Assembly: GCA_963717145.1 (NCBI GenBank)
Contig: OY970325.1
Span: 2,560,001 to 2,624,000, forward strand
Source: an uncultured Armatimonadetes bacterium
GTDB lineage: Bacteria; Armatimonadota; UBA5829; DTJY01
Length of the DNA: 64,000 nucleotides
Direction: 5' to 3'
Shown: positions 7,809-20,379 of the stretch, piece by piece
How positions within the stretch are numbered: the stretch's first letter is position 1
How the letters are laid out: every line of letters begins with the position of its first letter
Position numbers and translations under genes: made by a program
The notes under the pieces: generated by a model
Database searches by the model: none
The model's input: only the letters and a program-made list of their open reading frames with translations
Told to the model about the DNA's origin: nothing

Positions 7809-8723
7809 ATGCATGGCGAGGTTGACCGGTTCATCGACTACATGCAGGCCGTGCGGAACGTGTCCCCGAACACGATCAAGGGATACGCGACCGACATCGC
7901 CAAGTTCATCGGCTTCCTGGAAGACGAGAGCCTGAGCACGTCGCCGAGGGACATCCACTCGCGGATCGTCAGGCGTTACCTCGCGCGACTCCAGCGCCAG
8001 GGGATGAGCAAGACGTCGATCGCCCGGAAGATGGCTTCCCTCCGGGCGTTCTTCAGGTATCTGGTGCACAAGAAGCTCATGGAGCTGGACCCGATGCTCG
8101 GCCTCAGCAGCCCGAAGCTCGACAAGCGGCTGCCCAAGTTCCTGCGCCCGGAGCAGGTCGAGGCCCTGATGCTTCGTCCAGACACCACCGAGCCGATCGG
8201 CGCGCGGGATGCCGCGATGCTGGAGGTCCTGTACGCGACCGGCTGCCGTGTGAGCGAGGTCGCCGGGATGAACGTCCGAGACATGGACCTGGGGGCAGGC
8301 GAGATCAGGGTGCTCGGCAAGGGATCGAAGGAGCGAATCACGCTCATCGGCCGTGCGGCACAGGAGGCGCTTTCGGGGTATCTACACAATGCGCGCCCGA
8401 AGCTGCTGGCCAGGCGCACGGATGGCACGAACGAGCAGGCGGCGTTCCTGAACAAGGACGGCGGACGACTGACGGTTCGCAGCATAAACCGGATGCTCGA
8501 CAAGCACTTCGGCCAGGTGAGCGACGAGCTGAAGATCAGCCCGCACGTCCTGCGGCACACATTTGCGACTCACATGCTCGAGAACGGCGCGGACCTGCGC
8601 TCGATCCAGGAGCTTCTCGGGCACACGAGTCTCTCGACGACGCAGATCTACGCGCATGTCACCCAGGAGCGGCTGAAACAAGTATACGAACAAGCACATC
8701 CGAGAGCGCTGGAGGAACGATGA
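7809..8723 (+). CDS. xerC: tyrosine recombinase XerC
   Basis: [41 protein letters not shown]...TTQIY; directly upstream of hslVU. Confidence 0.9.
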
Positions 8724-10986: not shown

Positions 10987-11015
10987 TTGACGAGATAGCA
11001 TTTAGTTGTTATACT
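10987..11015 (+). promoter_or_regulatory. sigma70-type promoter for the fibre operon
   Basis: TTGACG-N17-TATACT about 95 nt before ATG 11111. Confidence 0.65.
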
Positions 11016-11110: not shown

Positions 11111-12130
11111 ATGCGTAAGACCAGACTGCTGACTCTCGCCGTCATCGTCCTGCTCGCCCTGAGTGCTTTGGCGAGCGCGTCTGTCCCGCCGATGATCAAC
11201 TACCAGGGCAAGCTGATGAAACCCGATGGCACACCGGTGGCCGATGGCACGTACAGCATTACCTTCACAATCTACGACGCCGAAACGGGCGGGAACATCC
11301 GCTGGTCTGAACCCAATGTCTCGGTTCAGGCCAAGGGCGGCCTGTTTGCCGTGCTATTGGGTGGCAATGGCACCAATCTACCCGCGAACATTTTTGAAGG
11401 CCCGGATCGCTGGTTCGGAATACAGGTAAATGACGACCCCGAGATGATTCCGAGACAGAGAATAGCCAGTGTTGCATATGCTCAGGTGGCTGAAATCGTC
11501 CCTGATGGCTCGATCACTGCGGAGAAGCTAGCGAATCAAAGCATTACCGCGGAGAAGCTTGTTCCCGGTGCTGCCACCCCTACCGGCACGATCTCGATGT
11601 TTGCCGGGGCAACTCCTCCGGCCGGCTGGCTGATCTGCAATGGCGCGCCAGTGTCGAGAGCGGAATATGCCGGCCTGTTTGCTGTGATTGGCACGACCTA
11701 TGGTGCTGGTGATGGTTCTACAGCTTTCAACCTGCCGAATCTGCAGGGTAGGTTCCCGCTTGGCAAGAGCCCCACGCAGCCGCTTGGCACGCTGGGTGGC
11801 ACTGCTACCATCAGTCTTCAGCACACCCATGCGACACTGGATCACATGCTAACATGGAATGAGATGCCAGCTCACAATCACGGGGTGAATGATCCCGGGC
11901 ATGCACACCCGATTGGTGCCATGGGCAACAAGAATTTCACGGGTACTGGCTACAATCCTCTCGTTACTGACAATAAACAGGATTGGACCGGAGGGGCTGT
12001 GACCGGCATTAGCATTCAGAACGCTGGCGCGAACTGGGGACACAATCACGGCAGCACCGGCAACGGTCTGTCCACTTCTCAGGACATAACGAATCCCTAC
12101 GTTGCCGTCAACTACATCATAAGAATTTAG
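11111..12130 (+). CDS. secreted fibre-like protein 1: signal peptide + INYQG domain + phage tail collar domain
   Basis: AGGAGG RBS; hydrophobic leader ending ASA; VPPMINYQGKL; PTGTISMFAG...GWLICNG...VSRAEYAGLFAVIGTTYG.GDGSTAFNLPNLQGRF; His-x-His repeats; PYVAVNYIIR end. Confidence 0.85.
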   Translation: MRKTRLLTLAVIVLLALSALASASVPPMINYQGKLMKPDGTPVADGTYSITFTIYDAETGGNIRWSEPNVSVQAKGGLFAVLLGGNGTNLPANIFEGPDRWFGIQVNDDPEMIPRQRIASVAYAQVAEIVPDGSITAEKLANQSITAEKLVPGAATPTGTISMFAGATPPAGWLICNGAPVSRAEYAGLFAVIGTTYGAGDGSTAFNLPNLQGRFPLGKSPTQPLGTLGGTATISLQHTHATLDHMLTWNEMPAHNHGVNDPGHAHPIGAMGNKNFTGTGYNPLVTDNKQDWTGGAVTGISIQNAGANWGHNHGSTGNGLSTSQDITNPYVAVNYIIRI

Positions 12131-12148
12131 CTAGGCTGGAGGAGCGAT

Positions 12149-13000
12149 ATGCTGAACATGAAGATTACACTGGTTACTGTTTTGGCATTGCTTGCGAGCA
12201 TTGCTGTCACGACGGCCGCAGTGCCACCGATGATCAACTATCAGGGCAAGCTGATGCAGCCGTCCGGTGTTCCCGTACCGGACGGAGAGTACAAGATGAC
12301 GTTTGCCATCTACGGGCAACCGGCCGGCAGCACGGCGCTCTGGTCGGAGGTGAATGAGCATGTCCAGATCAAGGGCGGATTGTACAGTGTCCTGCTCGGC
12401 AGTGTGATCAACCTACCTGCGAACATCTTCGATTCCTCCGACCGCTTCTTCGGCGTCAAGATCGGAGACGATCCCGAGATGACTCCGAGGCAGCAAGTCG
12501 CCTCGACTGCCTTTGCATTCCGGGCTGCATCCAGCCAGACGGTGGACGATGGAGCAGTAACGACGGCCAAGATCGCCCCCGGAGCGGTGACTGCGGATAG
12601 GCTCGCCCTGGGAGTAGCGATTCCGCCAGGAACGATCCTAATGTGGTCCGGTGCCGTAGACCAGGTTCCGCACGGCTGGGCGCTGTGCAATGGGACAGGT
12701 GGTACTCCTGATCTCAGAGACAGGTTCATCGTCGGGGCAGGAAACGAATACCTGCTGGGTGCTATCGGTGGTGAGAAGTTCCATCAATTGACGGTGGCTG
12801 AGATGGCAAGACACGCTCATTGGGAGCTGGCTTCCACTGTGAGCGGCTATGGGGGGGGTGATGGCACAGTCTCTGGTGCAGGCTTTGATTCTGGTAGCCA
12901 TTGGGCTGGTTATTCCACTGATAGTACTGGGGGCGACCAACCGCACGAGAACCGTCCGCCATACTACGCGCTCTGCTTCATCATGAAGCTGGGCTATTGA
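12149..13000 (+). CDS. secreted fibre-like protein 2: signal peptide + INYQG domain + short collar-like domain
   Basis: paralogous N-terminus VPPMINYQGKL; IPPGTILMWSG...GWALCNG..GTPDLRDRFIVGAG; HENRPPYYALCFIMK end. Confidence 0.85.
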   Translation: MLNMKITLVTVLALLASIAVTTAAVPPMINYQGKLMQPSGVPVPDGEYKMTFAIYGQPAGSTALWSEVNEHVQIKGGLYSVLLGSVINLPANIFDSSDRFFGVKIGDDPEMTPRQQVASTAFAFRAASSQTVDDGAVTTAKIAPGAVTADRLALGVAIPPGTILMWSGAVDQVPHGWALCNGTGGTPDLRDRFIVGAGNEYLLGAIGGEKFHQLTVAEMARHAHWELASTVSGYGGGDGTVSGAGFDSGSHWAGYSTDSTGGDQPHENRPPYYALCFIMKLGY

Positions 13001-13012
13001 GGAGAAGAAGTC

Positions 13013-15689
13013 ATGCGATTCCGAGACCGTATCCCAACACTGATCTGCCTCGCACTGATGGCTTCGGTCGCACCGGGGTATGCGGATACCACGTTAGAAG
13101 GTCCGTACTCTGCCAGTGCTGGACTCACGGCCTACACAACTGACACGGGTGGCAGCGTTTACTGGAACCCGAACAACTCGCCAACAGGTCAGTGCGTTTG
13201 GTTCGTCTTGGCCGTCAGGTCGGATTCCAGCAGTTTCCCACACGGTCTCTCTTACGCGAAGCAGCTCTACCCAGACCTTTGTAAGTGCTGGGTGGCACGT
13301 CGGTGGGACTCCAAAAGTCGGCGCAGTAATGTGCTATGGTTCCGCATACTCCAGTTCGGGCCATGTGGCCATTGTCACGGGCATCAATGGAGACGGCACC
13401 ATAAACGTTTGGGATTCAAACGTCATGGGCGACCTCAAAGTCCGTAAGCGTCGAGTAACAAATTTCACTGCTTGCAGGGGTACGTATACGCAAAGAACTC
13501 AGATACACCTCCAATATTGCAGGATCAGGATACCCAGTGCCCCTCCATATCTTTGACGCCAGACCGACACTGGTGGCTGGTATACGTCGCCCCAGTCCGT
13601 CTGCTGGAGCGCATCCGATCCGTGCGGTATCGCGCACACGAAAGTGTGGTGGGACGGCAATGCGGCCTCGGATGTTGGATCGAGCGGTTGCTGGTCGATG
13701 CCGGAGGGAATCCACGTTTTCAACGCACACGCGGCAGACAATTGCGGAAATGACTCAGGGTGCAGTGTGGCCAGGACATACCGGCTCGATACCCGTGATC
13801 CATCGATTGATCGCACTGGACCCAATACGGACCAGTGGTACGTCAGCCCTCAGAATGTATGCTGGCAGATCACCGATGCTGTGTCCGGTCTATCTGCCGC
13901 TCACGTGTGGTGGGAGGGCGGCTCCGATGTCTCAACCTCAGCACAGGGATGCACACCGCTACTGGAGGGCAGACGTCTACTGCACATCTGGGGACAGGAT
14001 GCCGCCGGGCGGACGAAGGAGATAACAGGCTGGTTCCAACTGGATGCAACACGTCCATCCATCACTGTCTCTGGTCCTGTTGTCTCAGCTTGGCTCAACA
14101 CCCCGCAGTCCGTCAGCTGGAACGCGACGGACGTAACATCCGGCATCGCCACGAAGACCCTGACTTGGGATAACGGTGCTTCTACCGGAACATCGCCCGT
14201 CCAGATACCCGAGGGCAGGCACACGGCGACGGTATCAGCGACTGACGCCGCAGGGAACTCCGCTTCCCAGAGCTTCGGTCCCTGGTGGATCGATACCGTC
14301 GCTCCATCGGTTGCCGTCACGATGAACCCGGCGGGACCGAACGGGGACAACGGATGGTACACCGTCGAGCCGATGATGTCTGTCTCGGCGACCGATCCGA
14401 ACGGCGCGGACGGCTCGGGGGTCGATGACCTCTTCTATATCATCAATGGCAGGGAGTATCCATACACCGGCCCCGTGACGATCATCGGTGACGGAGTCCA
14501 TCCGTGCGCAGGCAGAGCGACCGATGTTGCCGGGAATTCCGACCAGTCGGGCATCGAGGTCAATATCGACACCACCGCCCCGATGTTCGGCTCCATAGCA
14601 ACCGACACGGTATCCATGAGCCTGACCACGCTCTCTGCCTCGTGGGTGTGCAGTGAACCCACGTCCGGAATCGCCGCGTATGAGTACTCGCTCTACCACG
14701 TTGTTGGGAATTCCCATGAACTCGTGCGCGGTCTGTGTATCACCGATCAGGCCTGGGCACATGAGACGAACCTTGGACTCACGAGCGGTCAGTTCTACTT
14801 CTTCCGCGTCCGTGCGGTGAACAACGCCGGGTTATGGAGCGATTACATGGACTCCGATCCAATCCTCGCGCTCGAAGGCACGAGAGATGTCTCGCCTTCG
14901 TTCAACTCGGGTGGAGTGAGCGTTCCTGAGGAGGCCCGGAGCTCCACCAACTACAAGCTGGTCGATTCCATCGGCCTGTTCGTGGTGAACTCCTCATCGA
15001 GCCCGAACTACATGATAGAACACGGCTACTGGCACTCGGATGTGGCAGTGATAGATGCTACCTCAGTCCATGATGCCAAGTGCATGAACAACGGCATCGA
15101 CGTCACCCTGGGTCTGTCCGGGAGTCCGGTCGTCGTGACCTATCCCCTCGTCTTTGGGAACAGGTTCTACGTGCAGCAGCCGGATAGATCGAGCGGGATT
15201 GCTGTGGAGATTGCGTCGAACCCATCTACGATTCCGATGGGTGGTGACCGAGTACGCATCAGTGGCAGGCTCGGAGTCAGTGACGGCGAGCGCGTGATAC
15301 GCAATGCCGCAGTGACCTTGATCTCGCACGGGGACCTGCCCGGTGCGCTCTTCGTCAGCAACCGCTGGCTCGGCGGGCGTGACCTGAATGAGTGGACTCC
15401 CGGCGTGAGCGGGGTGTTCGGCCTGCACAACATCGGGCTGCTCATCAAGACCAGCGGCAAGATCGGCCAGGTCGATCCCGGCGGAGCATACTTCTATATC
15501 GACGACGGCTCGAACTTGCAGGATCGCACGATGACCGGTAGCCTAACCAACATCGGCGTGAGAGTCCTCGGCGACGGAAGGGGATACGGACCCGACACGT
15601 TCGTGACGGTCACCGGGATCAGTTCGTGCTTCAGCGATGGCGGTTCGGTCAAGAGGCTGATCCGGCCCGTGACTATCGAAGAGCTATAG
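13013..15689 (+). CDS. large secreted protein: CHAP domain + Ig-like repeats + FN3-like + C-terminal domain; three frameshifts (~13280, ~13470, ~13560)
   Basis: signal peptide; GQCVWF (frame 1) joins PKVGAVM...[21 protein letters not shown] (frame 2), LQGYVY (frame 3), then [14 protein letters not shown] in frame with ORF 13644-15689; repeated ATD.AGN...IDT.AP units. Confidence 0.72.
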
Positions 15690-17246
15690 ACCGGCATGCA
15701 GCGATTGCCTCGAGAGCCGTTCGGACCTGGGCGGCCTGGCGGTCGCGCTTGCTTCGGATGCGCTGCTCGGGCTTCGGGAGGATGCCGAAGTTCGCGTTCA
15801 TCGGCTGGAAGTCGGTGGTCTGCGGGGACGAAATGTAGTCCGCGAGCGCGCCGATCATCGTCTCGCGCGGGAAGACGACCGGCTCCTCGCCGCTGACTAG
15901 ACGCGCCGCATTGATCCCGGCGACGATCCCCATCGCCGCCGATTCCACGTATCCCTCAACGCCCGTGATCTGGCCGGCGAAAAAGAGGGTGTTGGGTGTG
16001 GGGTGTTGGGTGTTGGGGGAACCGAACCCTCACCCCGACCCTCTCCCTCAGAGGGAGAGGGGGCTCTCATCCGCATCGTCGGCAGGAGGAGCTTCGGCGA
16101 CTCGATGTAGGTGTTACGATGCATGACCCCGTACCGCACGAACTCCGCGCGCTCGAGGCCGGGGATCATGCGGAAAACGCGCTCCTGCTCGCCCCACTTA
16201 AGCCGTGTCTGGAATCCGACGAGCCCCCACAGAGTGCCCTCCCGGTTCTCCTGTCGAAGCTGGACGACGGCGTATGGGCGCTTCGCCGTATGACCCTCAC
16301 CCCAACCCTCTCCCTCAGAGGGCGAGGGGGTACGTTGGTTGGCTGCAGAGGGAGAGGCAGCATGTGCCCGATCCTCCCCTTGCCCCCTCAAGCGTTGGGG
16401 ATGGAGTTGGACTCCATCGCCCGCCGAACATGAGGGGATGGAGTCCAACTCCATCCCCAACGCTTGAGGGGGACTCTCCGGCAGATCGAGACCCACAGGT
16501 TTCAGCGGACCGAATGCGAGCGTCTGGCGTCCCCTCGATGCGATCTCCTCGACCGGCATGCATCCCTCGAAGAGCTGGAGCGGCTCGACGGCGCTCGTCG
16601 GCATTCGTTCGGCTGCCATCAAGGCATCGTAGAACGCGTTGTACTGGTCCTCCGTCATCGGGCAGTTGAGGTAGTCGGCGTCACCCTTTCCATACCGCGA
16701 GGCGCGGAATGCGATGCCGCAGTCGATCGAGTCCGCGGTGATGGTCGGCGCGACGGCATCGTAGAAATAGAGGTAGTCCCGCCCGGTGAGCCGAGCGATC
16801 TCCCGGGCAAGAGCATCGGAGGTCAGCGGCCCGGATGCGATGATGACGACCCCTTCGGACGGAAGCTCAGTCACCTCCCCGCGGATGATCTCCACGTTCG
16901 GCAGCGATGAGAGCCGCTCGGTCACGCATTCGGCGTATCGCTCCCCATCGACCGCCAGCGCCTGACCCGCTGGTAGCCGGTGTTCCTCGGCACACTCGAT
17001 CACGAGCGAGCCGAGGATGCGCATCTCCGCCTTGAGGAGTCCGGAAGCGCTGGTGAGGAGATCGGACTTCAGCGAGTTGCTGCACACGAGTTCGGCGAGG
17101 AGGCCCGTGCGGTGCACGGGCGTCTGCTTCGTCGGGCGCATCTCATAGAGTCGCACGGACATGCCGGATCGGGCCGCATGCCAGGCAGCCTCGACTCCTG
17201 CCAATCCGCATCCGATGATCGAGATGGCCGATGGACGATGGTTCAT
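15673..17246 (-). CDS. trmFO: tRNA (uracil-54)-methyltransferase TrmFO with repeat insertions and a frameshift near 16000
   Basis: [85 protein letters not shown] continues in another frame to stop 15673. Confidence 0.9.
15988..16062. repeat. tandem TGTTGGG-type heptamers plus CCCTCACCCCGACCCTCTCCC...GGGAGAGGG element inside trmFO
   Basis: four heptamer units followed by the hairpin element; related element at ~16295-16330. Confidence 0.8.
16383..16472. repeat. 36-bp perfect inverted repeat inside trmFO
   Basis: CCCCCTCAAGCGTTGGGGATGGAGTTGGACTCCATC (16383-16418) and its reverse complement (16437-16472). Confidence 0.9.
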
Positions 17247-17281
17247 GATGCAGCATTGTACCGCAATCAGGTACATGCACA

Positions 17282-17313
17282 CAAAGGGCCCCGGGGTAGC
17301 CCGGGGCCCTTTG
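17282..17313 (-). terminator. intrinsic terminator-like hairpin after the PEP-CTERM genes
   Basis: CAAAGGGCCCCGGG-gtag-CCCGGGGCCCTTTG. Confidence 0.7.
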
Positions 17314-17335: not shown

Positions 17336-17947
17336 CTATGCAGAGCGCCTCAACCGGCGGGCGGCGCCGGCGAGGGGGAAGATCCCCAGCGCCAAGCCCA
17401 GGAGGCTGGACGGCTCAGGGACAGGCGGAGTGGGAATACTCTGAGTAGTAATGGTGAACTTGACGCCGCAGTTGTAGTAGTGGCAGTCCGGGTCGAAGCC
17501 GAGTCCGACCACACCGTTGTTCCCGATGTACGAGGTCAGGGTGTCGAGCATACCGGGCTTGTTGCTCAGGTTGAAAGTCAGGTCCTCTTCCCAGGTATTG
17601 GTGTCAGACCAATCAGCGATGAGCGGATTGCCTGCCCAATTGTCTCCACCGTGCTCATTGTCGCTCCAGCGCTTGACGCCGGTCTGTGGGCTGTCGAGCA
17701 GATGGATGTACAGATGATCGTTCGACTCCTTGGTCCAATCGTCGATATTGTCGATGAACAGGGTGGCTTCCGTGATGCACTCACCGGCCGGGATGCTCCA
17801 GCGGATCCCCCAGGAGTAGTAGTACCCGTGATCCAGGTCCCAAAGGTCAGCATCGCTCGGCACGAACTGATACTGGGCGGCGGATGCCGGAAGTACCAGC
17901 GTGAGAAGCGCAAGGGCGGCCAAGACTGTGATGATTGCTTTCGACAT
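17336..17947 (-). CDS. PEP-CTERM sorting domain protein 1
   Basis: signal peptide; DLWDLDH...GLGFDPDCHYYNCG core; VPEPSSLLGLALG + TM + RRLRR. Confidence 0.9.
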   Translation of the reverse strand: MSKAIITVLAALALLTLVLPASAAQYQFVPSDADLWDLDHGYYYSWGIRWSIPAGECITEATLFIDNIDDWTKESNDHLYIHLLDSPQTGVKRWSDNEHGGDNWAGNPLIADWSDTNTWEEDLTFNLSNKPGMLDTLTSYIGNNGVVGLGFDPDCHYYNCGVKFTITTQSIPTPPVPEPSSLLGLALGIFPLAGAARRLRRSA

Positions 17948-18028
17948 TTCCTTCTCCTTTTGCATGTATGGATGCCGGCGCTCGCCCTGTTGCCGGGTCG
18001 AGCGTCCGATCTCGTCTGTGTGCGGTCG

Positions 18029-18679
18029 CTAGGCCCTGCGCCTTCTCACGGCCAGGGTTGTCAGCGAGGTCAGGCCGAAGGCCAGTGTGAGGAGGCTGGC
18101 CGGCTCCGGGACAGGCGGGTACTCAGGGTCGTCATCGACGGCGCACCTGTCGTGCCATGTCTGGCCATAGACCGGGTTGGTAACAGCAGTCCACTTCTTC
18201 GAACCGTCGAGCGATCCACTCCCCGGCTCGACTTGCGCCACGTGTGACAGGAAGCCGAGAGCGTCGGACCCGTCGTCGCGCTGATTGGCTATCGGAGCGA
18301 CCGGGTTGAAGGTGTACGTGAAGACTACAGACTGCCCCGGAGCAATCGCAGGGGGTGTGTAGTACTTCTGGTTGCTCGCCTCGATCTCGAAGGTCTCCCA
18401 GCCGTGGGATGTCCATTCCCAGCCCACCGGCGCCGTCCAGGAGATCGGCGCAGGCACGTTGAACGGTTGAAGCGTCCAAATGATGGCAAGTGGCGTGCCC
18501 GGGCTGTCGCTCCCATTGGTCAACGTCCAGGTGTATGTGTTCGTATCGGTATCCAGCATCGACTCCACGATCGTGATGCCGCTGGTCTTGGCGGACGACC
18601 AGGACTGGGCGACTGCGGGCAGTGCGAGAACCGCCATCAGCAAAACAACTACGGTGAGGACGGTTGCATTCCTAAGCAT
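18029..18679 (-). CDS. PEP-CTERM sorting domain protein 2
   Basis: signal peptide; VPEPASLLTLAFGL + TM + RRRRA. Confidence 0.9.
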   Translation of the reverse strand: MLRNATVLTVVVLLMAVLALPAVAQSWSSAKTSGITIVESMLDTDTNTYTWTLTNGSDSPGTPLAIIWTLQPFNVPAPISWTAPVGWEWTSHGWETFEIEASNQKYYTPPAIAPGQSVVFTYTFNPVAPIANQRDDGSDALGFLSHVAQVEPGSGSLDGSKKWTAVTNPVYGQTWHDRCAVDDDPEYPPVPEPASLLTLAFGLTSLTTLAVRRRRA

Positions 18680-19254
18680 TTCAATTCCCCTTTCCAATAT
18701 GGCCCTCCGTGGCCATGCAGATCATTGTCGACGCGGAGATACTTGCGGCGAATGGAGGATACCATTCTGGAGACCGCCTGCCTCGATATGCACAGGAGCG
18801 CAGGCAGATCGCGCTGTTCGTAGCCCTGTCTCATCAGCTCGTAGCATCTGTGCTCGCCCGGGCTGAGCATCGATTCCATGCGCTCGATATTGTCCCGAAG
18901 GATCAGGTGCTCGCATGGGTCACAGTGCTGATCGAGCTGATCAGCGCGGAGATCTCCGAGTGAGGTCTCCCACTCATAGCCGGTAAGCTCTCGCATACCG
19001 ATCGAACGGGAGCGGTCTATCCAAAGGTTGCGGATGGTATGGCGAAGGAACTGTTTCGGGAACTGGATGTCGTTCTCGTAACGGAGTACGGCGAGCAAGG
19101 CCTCTGATGCGAGGTCTTGCTGATCGTTATAGTCCGCCGAAAACTCCCGTGCACAGACGACAGCCAACATGAACAGTTCCTTAGCACGGAGGGAATCGTC
19201 GGGCCACTCGAGTCTGGGTGACACAGGAAGTCCTGTGGAGGTGTGGACCAACAT
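18649..19254 (-). CDS. small sigma70-family (ECF/group-5-like) sigma factor A
   Basis: sigma2-like QDLASEALLAVL...FLRHTIRNLWID; sigma4-like LSPGEHRCYELMRQGYEQRDLPALLCISRQAVSRMVSSIRRKY. Confidence 0.72.
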   Translation of the reverse strand: MLVHTSTGLPVSPRLEWPDDSLRAKELFMLAVVCAREFSADYNDQQDLASEALLAVLRYENDIQFPKQFLRHTIRNLWIDRSRSIGMRELTGYEWETSLGDLRADQLDQHCDPCEHLILRDNIERMESMLSPGEHRCYELMRQGYEQRDLPALLCISRQAVSRMVSSIRRKYLRVDNDLHGHGGPYWKGELKCLGMQPSSP

Positions 19255-19342
19255 TTTTCATCTTTCCTTCGATAGACGCCCCCGCCTTATGGCGAGTGAC
19301 TTTAGCTGCTGGGGCAAATCTTTGTCTGCCCCTTCAGGTGGA

Positions 19343-19453
19343 TAGACAAGCGAGGGGACCAAATGTCAACCAAAAAAGTTCAGAAATCGCGCCGGAGGGC
19401 AATCTTTCGGTTTTCGACATTTCTGGTTGACATTCCGGGAGTTCAAACGTCTA
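19343..19453. promoter_or_regulatory. back-to-back putative alternative-sigma promoters GGTTGACATT-N13-YGTCTA
   Basis: minus: 19371-19362 then TGTCTA 19348-19343; plus: 19425-19434 then CGTCTA 19448-19453; identical spacing. Confidence 0.7.
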
Positions 19454-19497
19454 CACAGTGGTAGCCGATTCGGCTGCGATGAAGTTGTCCATGGTAG

Positions 19498-19680
19498 ATG
19501 AAAATGTGGGTAGTTCTGTGGAAAGATAGCAGATCCGGAAGATCCGGCGCGCTCAAGTGTCCGGGCAAGCAGACTTGGAAGGACGCCGAAGGTCATGCCA
19601 GAGCGCTCAAAGCTCTGTTCCCTGAGCGCAGATTCCAGGTCGGTTGGGTGCAACTCGCGTCTCGGAGCACACTACAGTAG
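19498..19680 (+). CDS. 60-aa basic, Trp-rich hypothetical protein
   Basis: ORF starts 45 nt after the plus-strand promoter-like motif and fills the gap between the two sigma genes; weak RBS. Confidence 0.45.
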   Translation: MKMWVVLWKDSRSGRSGALKCPGKQTWKDAEGHARALKALFPERRFQVGWVQLASRSTLQ

Positions 19681-20184
19681 GTCTTCCGACTCCAGTTCCT
19701 CGTACTTGCGGCGTATCGAGGTGAGCAGCTTCGAGACAGCTTGCCTCGATACGCCCATGATCCCCGGCAAGTCCTTCTGCTCGTGGCCTTCCTTGAGCAT
19801 CTGATAGCACGCAAGCTCGGTCGGTGTCAGTCGCACGAGCAGCCGCTCCAGTGTGTCGCGGAGGATGACCGTCTCCGACAGTGCCTGCCGAGACTCCGCG
19901 ATATCGTCCTCGAACGCCGTGTCCGAGTTGCTGAACTCCCTGGCCCCGGCGCCTACACAGCCGCGATTGATCGCCAGCCTCCGAACTGTAGTCCAGATGA
20001 AGCTCTTTGGATGCTCTATCGGCTTCTCGTATTCCAGCAACGCGCGCACCGCATCGGAAACCAGGTCCTGGCGCTCGTCGTAGTTGCCCGAATACTGCTC
20101 GGCACAATCGGCGATGTACCTGCGCCACTGATCATCCACGCGGGACTCACGGGTTGCCTGCTCTATGTTTTCTTGAATGCTCAT
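19672..20184 (-). CDS. small sigma70-family (ECF/group-5-like) sigma factor B, paralog of A (start uncertain)
   Basis: QDLVSDAVRALL...FIWTTVRRLAIN; LTPTELACYQMLKEGHEQKDLPGIMGVSRQAVSKLLTSIRRKY. Confidence 0.72.
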   Translation of the reverse strand: MSIQENIEQATRESRVDDQWRRYIADCAEQYSGNYDERQDLVSDAVRALLEYEKPIEHPKSFIWTTVRRLAINRGCVGAGAREFSNSDTAFEDDIAESRQALSETVILRDTLERLLVRLTPTELACYQMLKEGHEQKDLPGIMGVSRQAVSKLLTSIRRKYEELESEDLL

Positions 20185-20379
20185 CTGCGACCACCCAGCC
20201 AGCATATGTGTCAGATGGCCCCGCATACTGCCTGCGGTGGTATGTCTGACTGCTGTCTCAGTGGTAGCTACTGCACGTTCCGTGCCAAAACGGACAACTC
20301 GGGGCATTTATATGCAATACTGGTATAATTGCTGGCCGGCTGCGATGGGGGTTGCAGGCGGAAGGGGCGGAAAGCAGAA

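Follow-up and report, generated by a model that had tools for sequence, protein, structure and literature searches.

A GxW module as predicted link between phage-like surface fibres and a peptidoglycan hydrolase in an Armatimonadota genome

The locus studied here raises the question of how phage-like fibres could be held on a bacterial cell, and why a wall-cutting enzyme should be encoded beside them. It lies in a 64,000-nucleotide stretch of DNA from an uncultured Armatimonadetes bacterium (the window; positions 2,560,001 to 2,624,000 of contig OY970325.1, assembly GCA_963717145.1), part of a single 5.37-Mb contig. Two genes encode fibre proteins built on a base domain with a YQG motif (fibres 1 and 2), and a third (gene 3, 13013-15689) encodes, in this order, a signal peptide, a CHAP domain, about four immunoglobulin (Ig)-like repeats, an fn3 domain, a 55-residue module that we call GxW and a tail of about 200 residues. 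The conserved link to the fibres is GxW, not CHAP. The first-pass annotation of this DNA described gene 3 without its last 270 residues (GxW and a tandem-OB tail), which carry that link, and named the GYW/GFW motif only as something to check. We consider it very probable that GxW mounts fibre trimers on a surface tag of this lineage. On balance, we also favour the wider reading that GxW is an adaptor that both anchors fibre trimers and adds a swappable hydrolase to them, one that is likelier to act on foreign wall than on the producer's own.

Fibres 1 and 2 appear from their sequences to be short, distant relatives of the mosaic adhesive trimer (MAT) fibres of Bdellovibrio bacteriovorus, with which they have in common a signal peptide, a beta-rich base of about 100-130 residues and variable phage-like tips. 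Their matches to NF053851 (Bdello_MAT_N), at E values of 1.4e-9 and 1e-8 (38 and 35.2 bits), cover the first half of this profile. Each of the eight fibres encoded in the genome matches it at 24-39 bits, and none (0/8) reaches the 60-bit cut-off, so that the resemblance to MAT fibres noted in the first-pass annotation is supported, although below cut-off. The MAT link rests on this match because "YQG" is absent from the text of the MAT paper and the readable part of its supplement (PMC10769870). The base stays constant among the eight fibres, which lie in four loci, and their tips are of collar, S74 or collagen type; variable tips are likewise a feature of MAT fibres. The two fibres differ from MAT fibres in length (283-339 versus 626-1959 residues), in their collar tips, which are not among the 21 MAT tips of strain HD100, and in the hydrolase-bearing GxW partner encoded in their operon.

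That the two fibres have a common N-terminal module and diverging collar-type tips, as first described, is confirmed by their identities (61/101 in the base, 47/120 in the tip). The collar family PF07484 matches gene 1 at E 1e-25 and gene 2 at 2e-4, below cut-off, and the tips match 21 and 8 phage tail-fibre PHROG families, respectively. The stalk motif of both is the short DG.IT..KL. The base is modelled as all-beta with a predicted local distance difference test (pLDDT) score of 86.5, and its YQG profile counts 83,500 clusters at 50% identity. Among solved structures it has no sequence match, the best fold being at Z 7.0 to generic Ig-like sandwiches. Residues Y31, Q32, G33, L35, P113 and R114 are nearly invariant in the alignment. 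The closest named relatives of both fibres are from Armatimonadota. At two other loci (L042 and L044), the YQG domain lies about 300 residues into the fibre, in some cases C-terminally, and the genes alternate with GxW-OB genes. Two genomes of 1.4 Mb (G311 and G312, those of loci L164 and L128) encode fibres of up to 3700 residues, with GxW genes near the arrays.

The distribution of GxW follows that of the fibres. The genome contains four copies, one at each fibre locus (4/4) and none elsewhere, whereas the OB tail occurs in 69 open reading frames (ORFs). Within 41 related genomes the base domain was detected in 19 and GxW in 18, all of them among those 19; of the 34 GxW matches, 26 have a fibre no more than 5 kb away. 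Across 301 genomes of the phylum, 43 have the base domain, 32 have GxW and 30 have both. When loci were collected with only the base domain as query, GxW turned up at 26 of 89 (reversed-ORF control, 0). The proposed co-occurrence of base/collar genes with GYW/GFW-motif genes is thus supported, both at the fibre loci of this genome and in 30 of the 32 genomes with GxW. One genome with 16 fibres has a single, unlinked GxW gene. GxW has no family in Pfam, NCBIfam or PHROG (one NCBIfam row at E 0.06 was disregarded). A gene with the motif DY.P..D..L..W (G000:C1:1436737, 4541305 and 5282019) was considered as a further part of the system, since it occurs close to 3 of the 4 fibre loci, and rejected, as only three of its 20 matches in the genome are near fibre loci and none is in the loci of relatives.

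What follows GxW varies. In the 26 loci its fusion tails are OB (7), dockerin-like (12), FlgD/type IX secretion system (T9SS) type (2), Chloroflexota type (1), RHS (3) and other (1). The dockerin-like tails were judged by eye and come from records titled Zixibacteria or Ignavibacteria, with one unclassified. The tail of gene 3 models as two OB folds (Z about 10, root-mean-square deviation 2-3 A over 80-90 residues) and has no Pfam or NCBIfam family. It occupies the same place, directly after GxW, as the dockerin and T9SS C-terminal tails of other phyla, but differs from them in its tandem OB fold and in being without a known export machine; this unnamed tail thus takes the position of known sorting tags. 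The Por_Secre_tail domain has no match on gene 3 or in the genome, where the control search also matched nowhere. At three loci (L154:6774-12329, L167:7289-12298 and L174:6746-10357, in records titled Omnitrophota or Planctomycetia), large RHS proteins start with a GxW-like module and adjoin a fibre gene.

A structural model is in line with a direct contact between GxW and the fibre base. With three copies of residues 25-158 of fibre 2 and a GxW 60-mer as input, the complex scored 0.83, compared to 0.00 for the best of 3 controls; in calibration, 116 of 157 solved pairs reach the pass mark, as against 2 of 215 mismatched ones. At least 84% of contacts recur between runs, with a partner pLDDT of at least 67. 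In the predicted contact, two subunits each offer their YQGKL strand (residues 33-37) to the NY.L repeats of GxW (27-29 and 46-49), whereas contact with the third is less extensive, and all six nearly invariant base residues are used. The three base copies are modelled at pLDDT 89-92 and only the GxW partner was scored; by itself, GxW models at low confidence (pLDDT mostly under 50, the only lead being 0.76 Atlas). A pass from the model's memory is less likely, because the base has no sequence or clear fold match among solved structures. The model supports GxW-base binding without showing it. Of the multimer of fibre trimers with gene 3 that the first-pass annotation had suggested, it covers the fibre base and the GxW part.

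The enzyme at the other end of the chain changes from relative to relative. Nine long homologues of the fn3-GxW region carry CHAP (3), M23 (4) or no Pfam hydrolase (2); of the last two, one is clipped at its start and has a cluster mate with M23, and the other has CHAP-like motifs. At ten loci with DNA (the window, L031, L099, L177, L187-L190, L195 and L196) a fibre gene lies within 700 nt in every case (10/10), with heads of CHAP (6), M23 (1), NlpC/P60 (1), C39_2 (1) and an NlpC-like domain judged by eye (1). Six of these loci were reached via the fibre and L187-L190 via the GxW region alone; a fifth such match, L191, is an 18-residue alignment covering neither module and was left out. Two relatives also carry LGFP or ChW repeats, of a kind that occurs in surface proteins of monoderms. 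The genome has no CHAP gene other than gene 3; M23 and NlpC/P60 domains are absent from its OB-tail ORFs, where amidase and glycosidase families were not searched. Like CHAP peptidoglycan hydrolases (PF05257; PcsB type), gene 3 has the motifs GQCVWF and GHVAI, with Pfam and NCBIfam matches. It is unlike them in its Ig stalk with GxW and OB tail, in the replacement of CHAP by M23, NlpC/P60 or C39_2 in relatives and in its frameshifts. The coupling of fibre and wall hydrolase first proposed for this operon is supported for this subfamily by its ten linked loci, swapped heads and model pass; it has to be amended in that it runs via GxW, most GxW partners have no enzyme and gene 3 is broken as assembled.

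Elsewhere in the genome (G000:C1:4534676-4542021), a divergent GxW-OB gene is accompanied by three S74-type fibres, one of them frameshifted, and then by a separate secreted M23 peptidase, one of the two M23 genes of the genome. This S74 array with its separate peptidase is possibly an unfused version of the pairing. In L177 (1-7438), the hydrolase-fibre cassette adjoins genes for serine and tyrosine recombinases and for ParB-like and amidoligase-like proteins, a setting which suggests that an integrative element carries it.

As assembled, gene 3 does not form a single ORF, since the frame changes near 13280, 13470 and 13560. The domains of a CHAP protein on an Ig stalk are present as first described, whereas the single chain is not: because of the frame changes, the catalytic Cys (13193) and His (13362) of CHAP lie in different frames. 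Both residues are intact in the orthologue P0253, to which the CHAP region (with X at the breaks) is 80/143 (56%) identical, and the locus of P0253 (L031) is an intact operon with the same order of fibre, fibre and gene 3. No in-frame stops from substitutions were found in gene 3. Elsewhere in the assembly, 6 of 110 places matched by ORFs of relatives also change frame (many of the 110 being antisense shadows), some of them in RNase J-like and GlmS-like genes, which points to assembly error; the clustering of the breaks, together with a fragmented orthologue, allows for pseudogenisation. The breaks are thus either an assembly error or the mark of a pseudogene, and this copy may be inactive. 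Two of the three breaks have the context CCAGACC in common, which was rejected as a systematic error motif because just one of 14 further break sites shows it.

In the mechanism that we propose, fibres 1 and 2 would be exported by Sec and trimerize, presenting their collar tips to the outside as adhesins. Gene 3 would grip the common YQG base through GxW, one module per trimer, with its two NY.L strands pairing with YQGKL strands of neighbouring subunits. The tandem-OB tail that follows would hold the assembly at the cell surface or in the matrix, and the same chain would run via the Ig stalk to a swappable peptidoglycan hydrolase, here CHAP. The fibre would then bind a target surface and the enzyme cut the adjacent wall, most likely the exposed wall of other bacteria or debris. 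We infer the passage through the outer membrane, the anchoring role of the OB tail and the target and activity of the hydrolase. The pairing follows the logic of phage tail tips, which place receptor binding beside a virion-associated wall hydrolase. It is also conceivable, if somewhat short of an even chance, that GxW is a general mount for MAT-type fibres across phyla, joining one fibre base to the particular surface tag of each lineage, and a handle for cargo (swappable wall hydrolases in Armatimonadota, RHS in Omnitrophota), amounting to a tube-less, fibre-aimed contact weapon directed at other bacteria.

The GxW protein suggests how phage-like fibres may stay on a cell and be paired with attack on other walls. 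The base of MAT fibres "would presumably tightly bind" a surface element awaiting identification, according to the MAT paper (Caulton et al. 2024, PMC10769870), which also reports MATs from further groups associated with predators. For that partner, GxW, at 55 residues and modelled to the level of single residues, is a directly testable candidate. The accessible part of a 2026 review (PMC13689555) does not name the fibre anchor, and those of PMC12034629 and PMC12750041 hold nothing further on an adaptor or fusion. The GxW adaptor, the hydrolase fusion and the OB tail are not described in the literature covered, from which subscription papers and preprint supplements were excluded. The hydrolase form suggests that some Armatimonadota, which are not described as predators in that literature, may aim wall-cutting enzymes via phage-derived tips.

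Several observations weigh against the adaptor reading. Of the 77 fibre matches in the 41 related genomes, no more than 45 lie 10 kb or less from a GxW, only 12 of 37 fibre loci of relatives have it nearby, and it is present at only 16 of 39 base-domain loci with 1.5 kb on both sides. No GxW match was found in 13 of the 43 fibre-bearing genomes of the phylum, and two of a set of five genomes that includes the one with 16 fibres had none. The GxW and base profiles were partly seeded from these loci, and related genomes are not independent cases. Long GxW proteins without a wall hydrolase exist (L197, P0298, P0299 and the RHS proteins), and the enzyme-bearing form is rare, at 2 of 301 genomes with a narrow profile. 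The complex job, with three copies and its own alignments, is unlike the calibration. Finally, gene 3 is frameshifted three times within 280 nt, and its orthologue in L099 is likewise in pieces.

Two other explanations accept GxW as a working part and assign the enzyme differently; we regard each as unlikely. According to one of them, GxW is an adaptor and the hydrolase cuts the producer's own peptidoglycan to pass or seat the fibre complex, as for pili and secretion machines. The operon linkage and signal peptides fit this equally well, all heads are wall-type or papain-like peptidases and the loci inspected contain no recognisable immunity gene. However, most GxW partners are free of enzyme yet lie beside similar fibres, so that the enzyme seems dispensable for display, and swaps among unrelated families, a long stalk and the LGFP/ChW repeats fit varied outside targets better. 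Since display works without the enzyme and two relatives add such repeats, we consider foreign wall the likelier target. Alternatively, the complex may be released, as a soluble targeted lysin or wall scavenger, aimed by the fibre trimer and attached to matrix or substrate by its OB tail. The OB tail, with its many genomic occurrences and merely predicted anchoring function, leaves room for such a role, but the fusion of GxW to T9SS-type tails in other phyla and the one GxW gene facing 16 fibres in one genome fit a general mount.

The remaining alternatives dispense with the assembly. That gene 3 and the fibres are merely co-regulated neighbours in a mobile cassette, with no contact, and that this copy is a decaying pseudogene, would agree with the three clustered breaks, the lower third-position GC content (GC3), the patchy spread and the relative on a contig with recombinase genes. 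We nevertheless consider it improbable, in view of the complex model pass, the one-to-one pattern of GxW across fibre loci and genomes, the lack of substitution stops, the 56% identity across the breaks and the frame changes elsewhere in the assembly. Least probable, and largely refuted, is a remnant of a prophage, tailocin or injection system. The tips are phage-like and resemble trimeric phage fibres (T4 gp12, PDB 1pdi/1ocy, and the long tail fibre 8kec have a similar collar and HxH tip) and 10 IMG/VR loci match the base, nine of them weakly (L178-L186, profiled for base and GxW only). The tenth, L177, matches strongly; over 14.6 kb it shows genes of recombinase and ParB-like type, and none that is evidently from a virion. 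Unlike phage fibres, those studied here have signal peptides, a base without phage match and no tube, sheath or capsid. Neither 50,697 phage records nor PHROGs contain a match to the base, and BFVD has none at E<=0.001; no sheath gene was found in the genome, in a search where 3 of 14 controls matched (profile searches did not extend to tube, baseplate, capsid and terminase), and the flanks are hslVU and trmFO. The non-phage, secreted and modular character first assigned to the fibres is thus supported.

Table 1. Features of the fibre-hydrolase operon (window positions)
Feature	Position	Strand	Details
Sigma70-like promoter, TTGACG-17-TATACT, extended -10 (TG)	10987..11015	+	consensus match 10/12
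Fibre 1 (gene 1), 339 aa	11111..12130	+	signal peptide aa 1-23; YQG base 25-126; short stalk; collar 159-216; tip with four HxH motifs
Fibre 2 (gene 2), 283 aa	12149..13000	+	signal peptide 1-24; YQG base 25-125; stalk; shorter collar-type tip, one HxH
Gene 3 start: signal peptide and CHAP (Cys 13193, His 13362)	13013..13470	+	split by frame changes near 13280, 13470
Gene 3 stalk: about four Ig-like repeats (Big_13, OmpL47-type) and fn3-like domain	13560..14865	+	repeats counted by eye; after third frame change
GxW module, two S.S.NY.L repeats, ends EHGYW	14874..15053	+	predicted to wrap fibre base trimer
Tandem OB-fold tail	15045..15689	+	candidate surface anchor; common to 69 genome ORFs, mostly C-terminal

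The layout of the operon largely agrees with its first description. The three genes are separated by 18 nt (genes 1 and 2) and 12 nt (genes 2 and 3), a GGAG-type ribosome-binding site precedes each, and each starts with a basic n-region and a hydrophobic h-region by a crude hydropathy check, which bears out the tight spacing and signal-peptide-like starts. The sigma70 promoter call is more equivocal: the consensus match is good, but shuffled sequence would give 2.8 promoter-like sites where three are seen, which leaves its position as the sole support for the call. The lower GC content relative to the flanks is correct in direction and mild in extent (0.582 versus 0.606, the 11th percentile among same-sized bins); GC3 is 0.63-0.73, compared to 0.75-0.91 in four flanking genes. 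The claim that no integrase lies nearby needs correction, as a tyrosine recombinase (7809-8723; PHROG integrase match, E 3e-58) is encoded 2.4 kb upstream of the operon. Its place before hslV-hslU marks it as the housekeeping xerC. The three genes are flanked by xerC-hslV-hslU on one side and a convergent trmFO on the other, as named from their motifs.

The trmFO-like gene (15673-17282, minus strand) changes frame near its end and contains palindromic repeats within its coding sequence, a 38-nt pair at 16026 and 16293 and a 39-nt hairpin at 16383-16472. Beyond it, on the minus strand at 17336-20307, lie in tandem genes for two PEP-CTERM-like proteins and two extracytoplasmic function (ECF) sigma-like genes.

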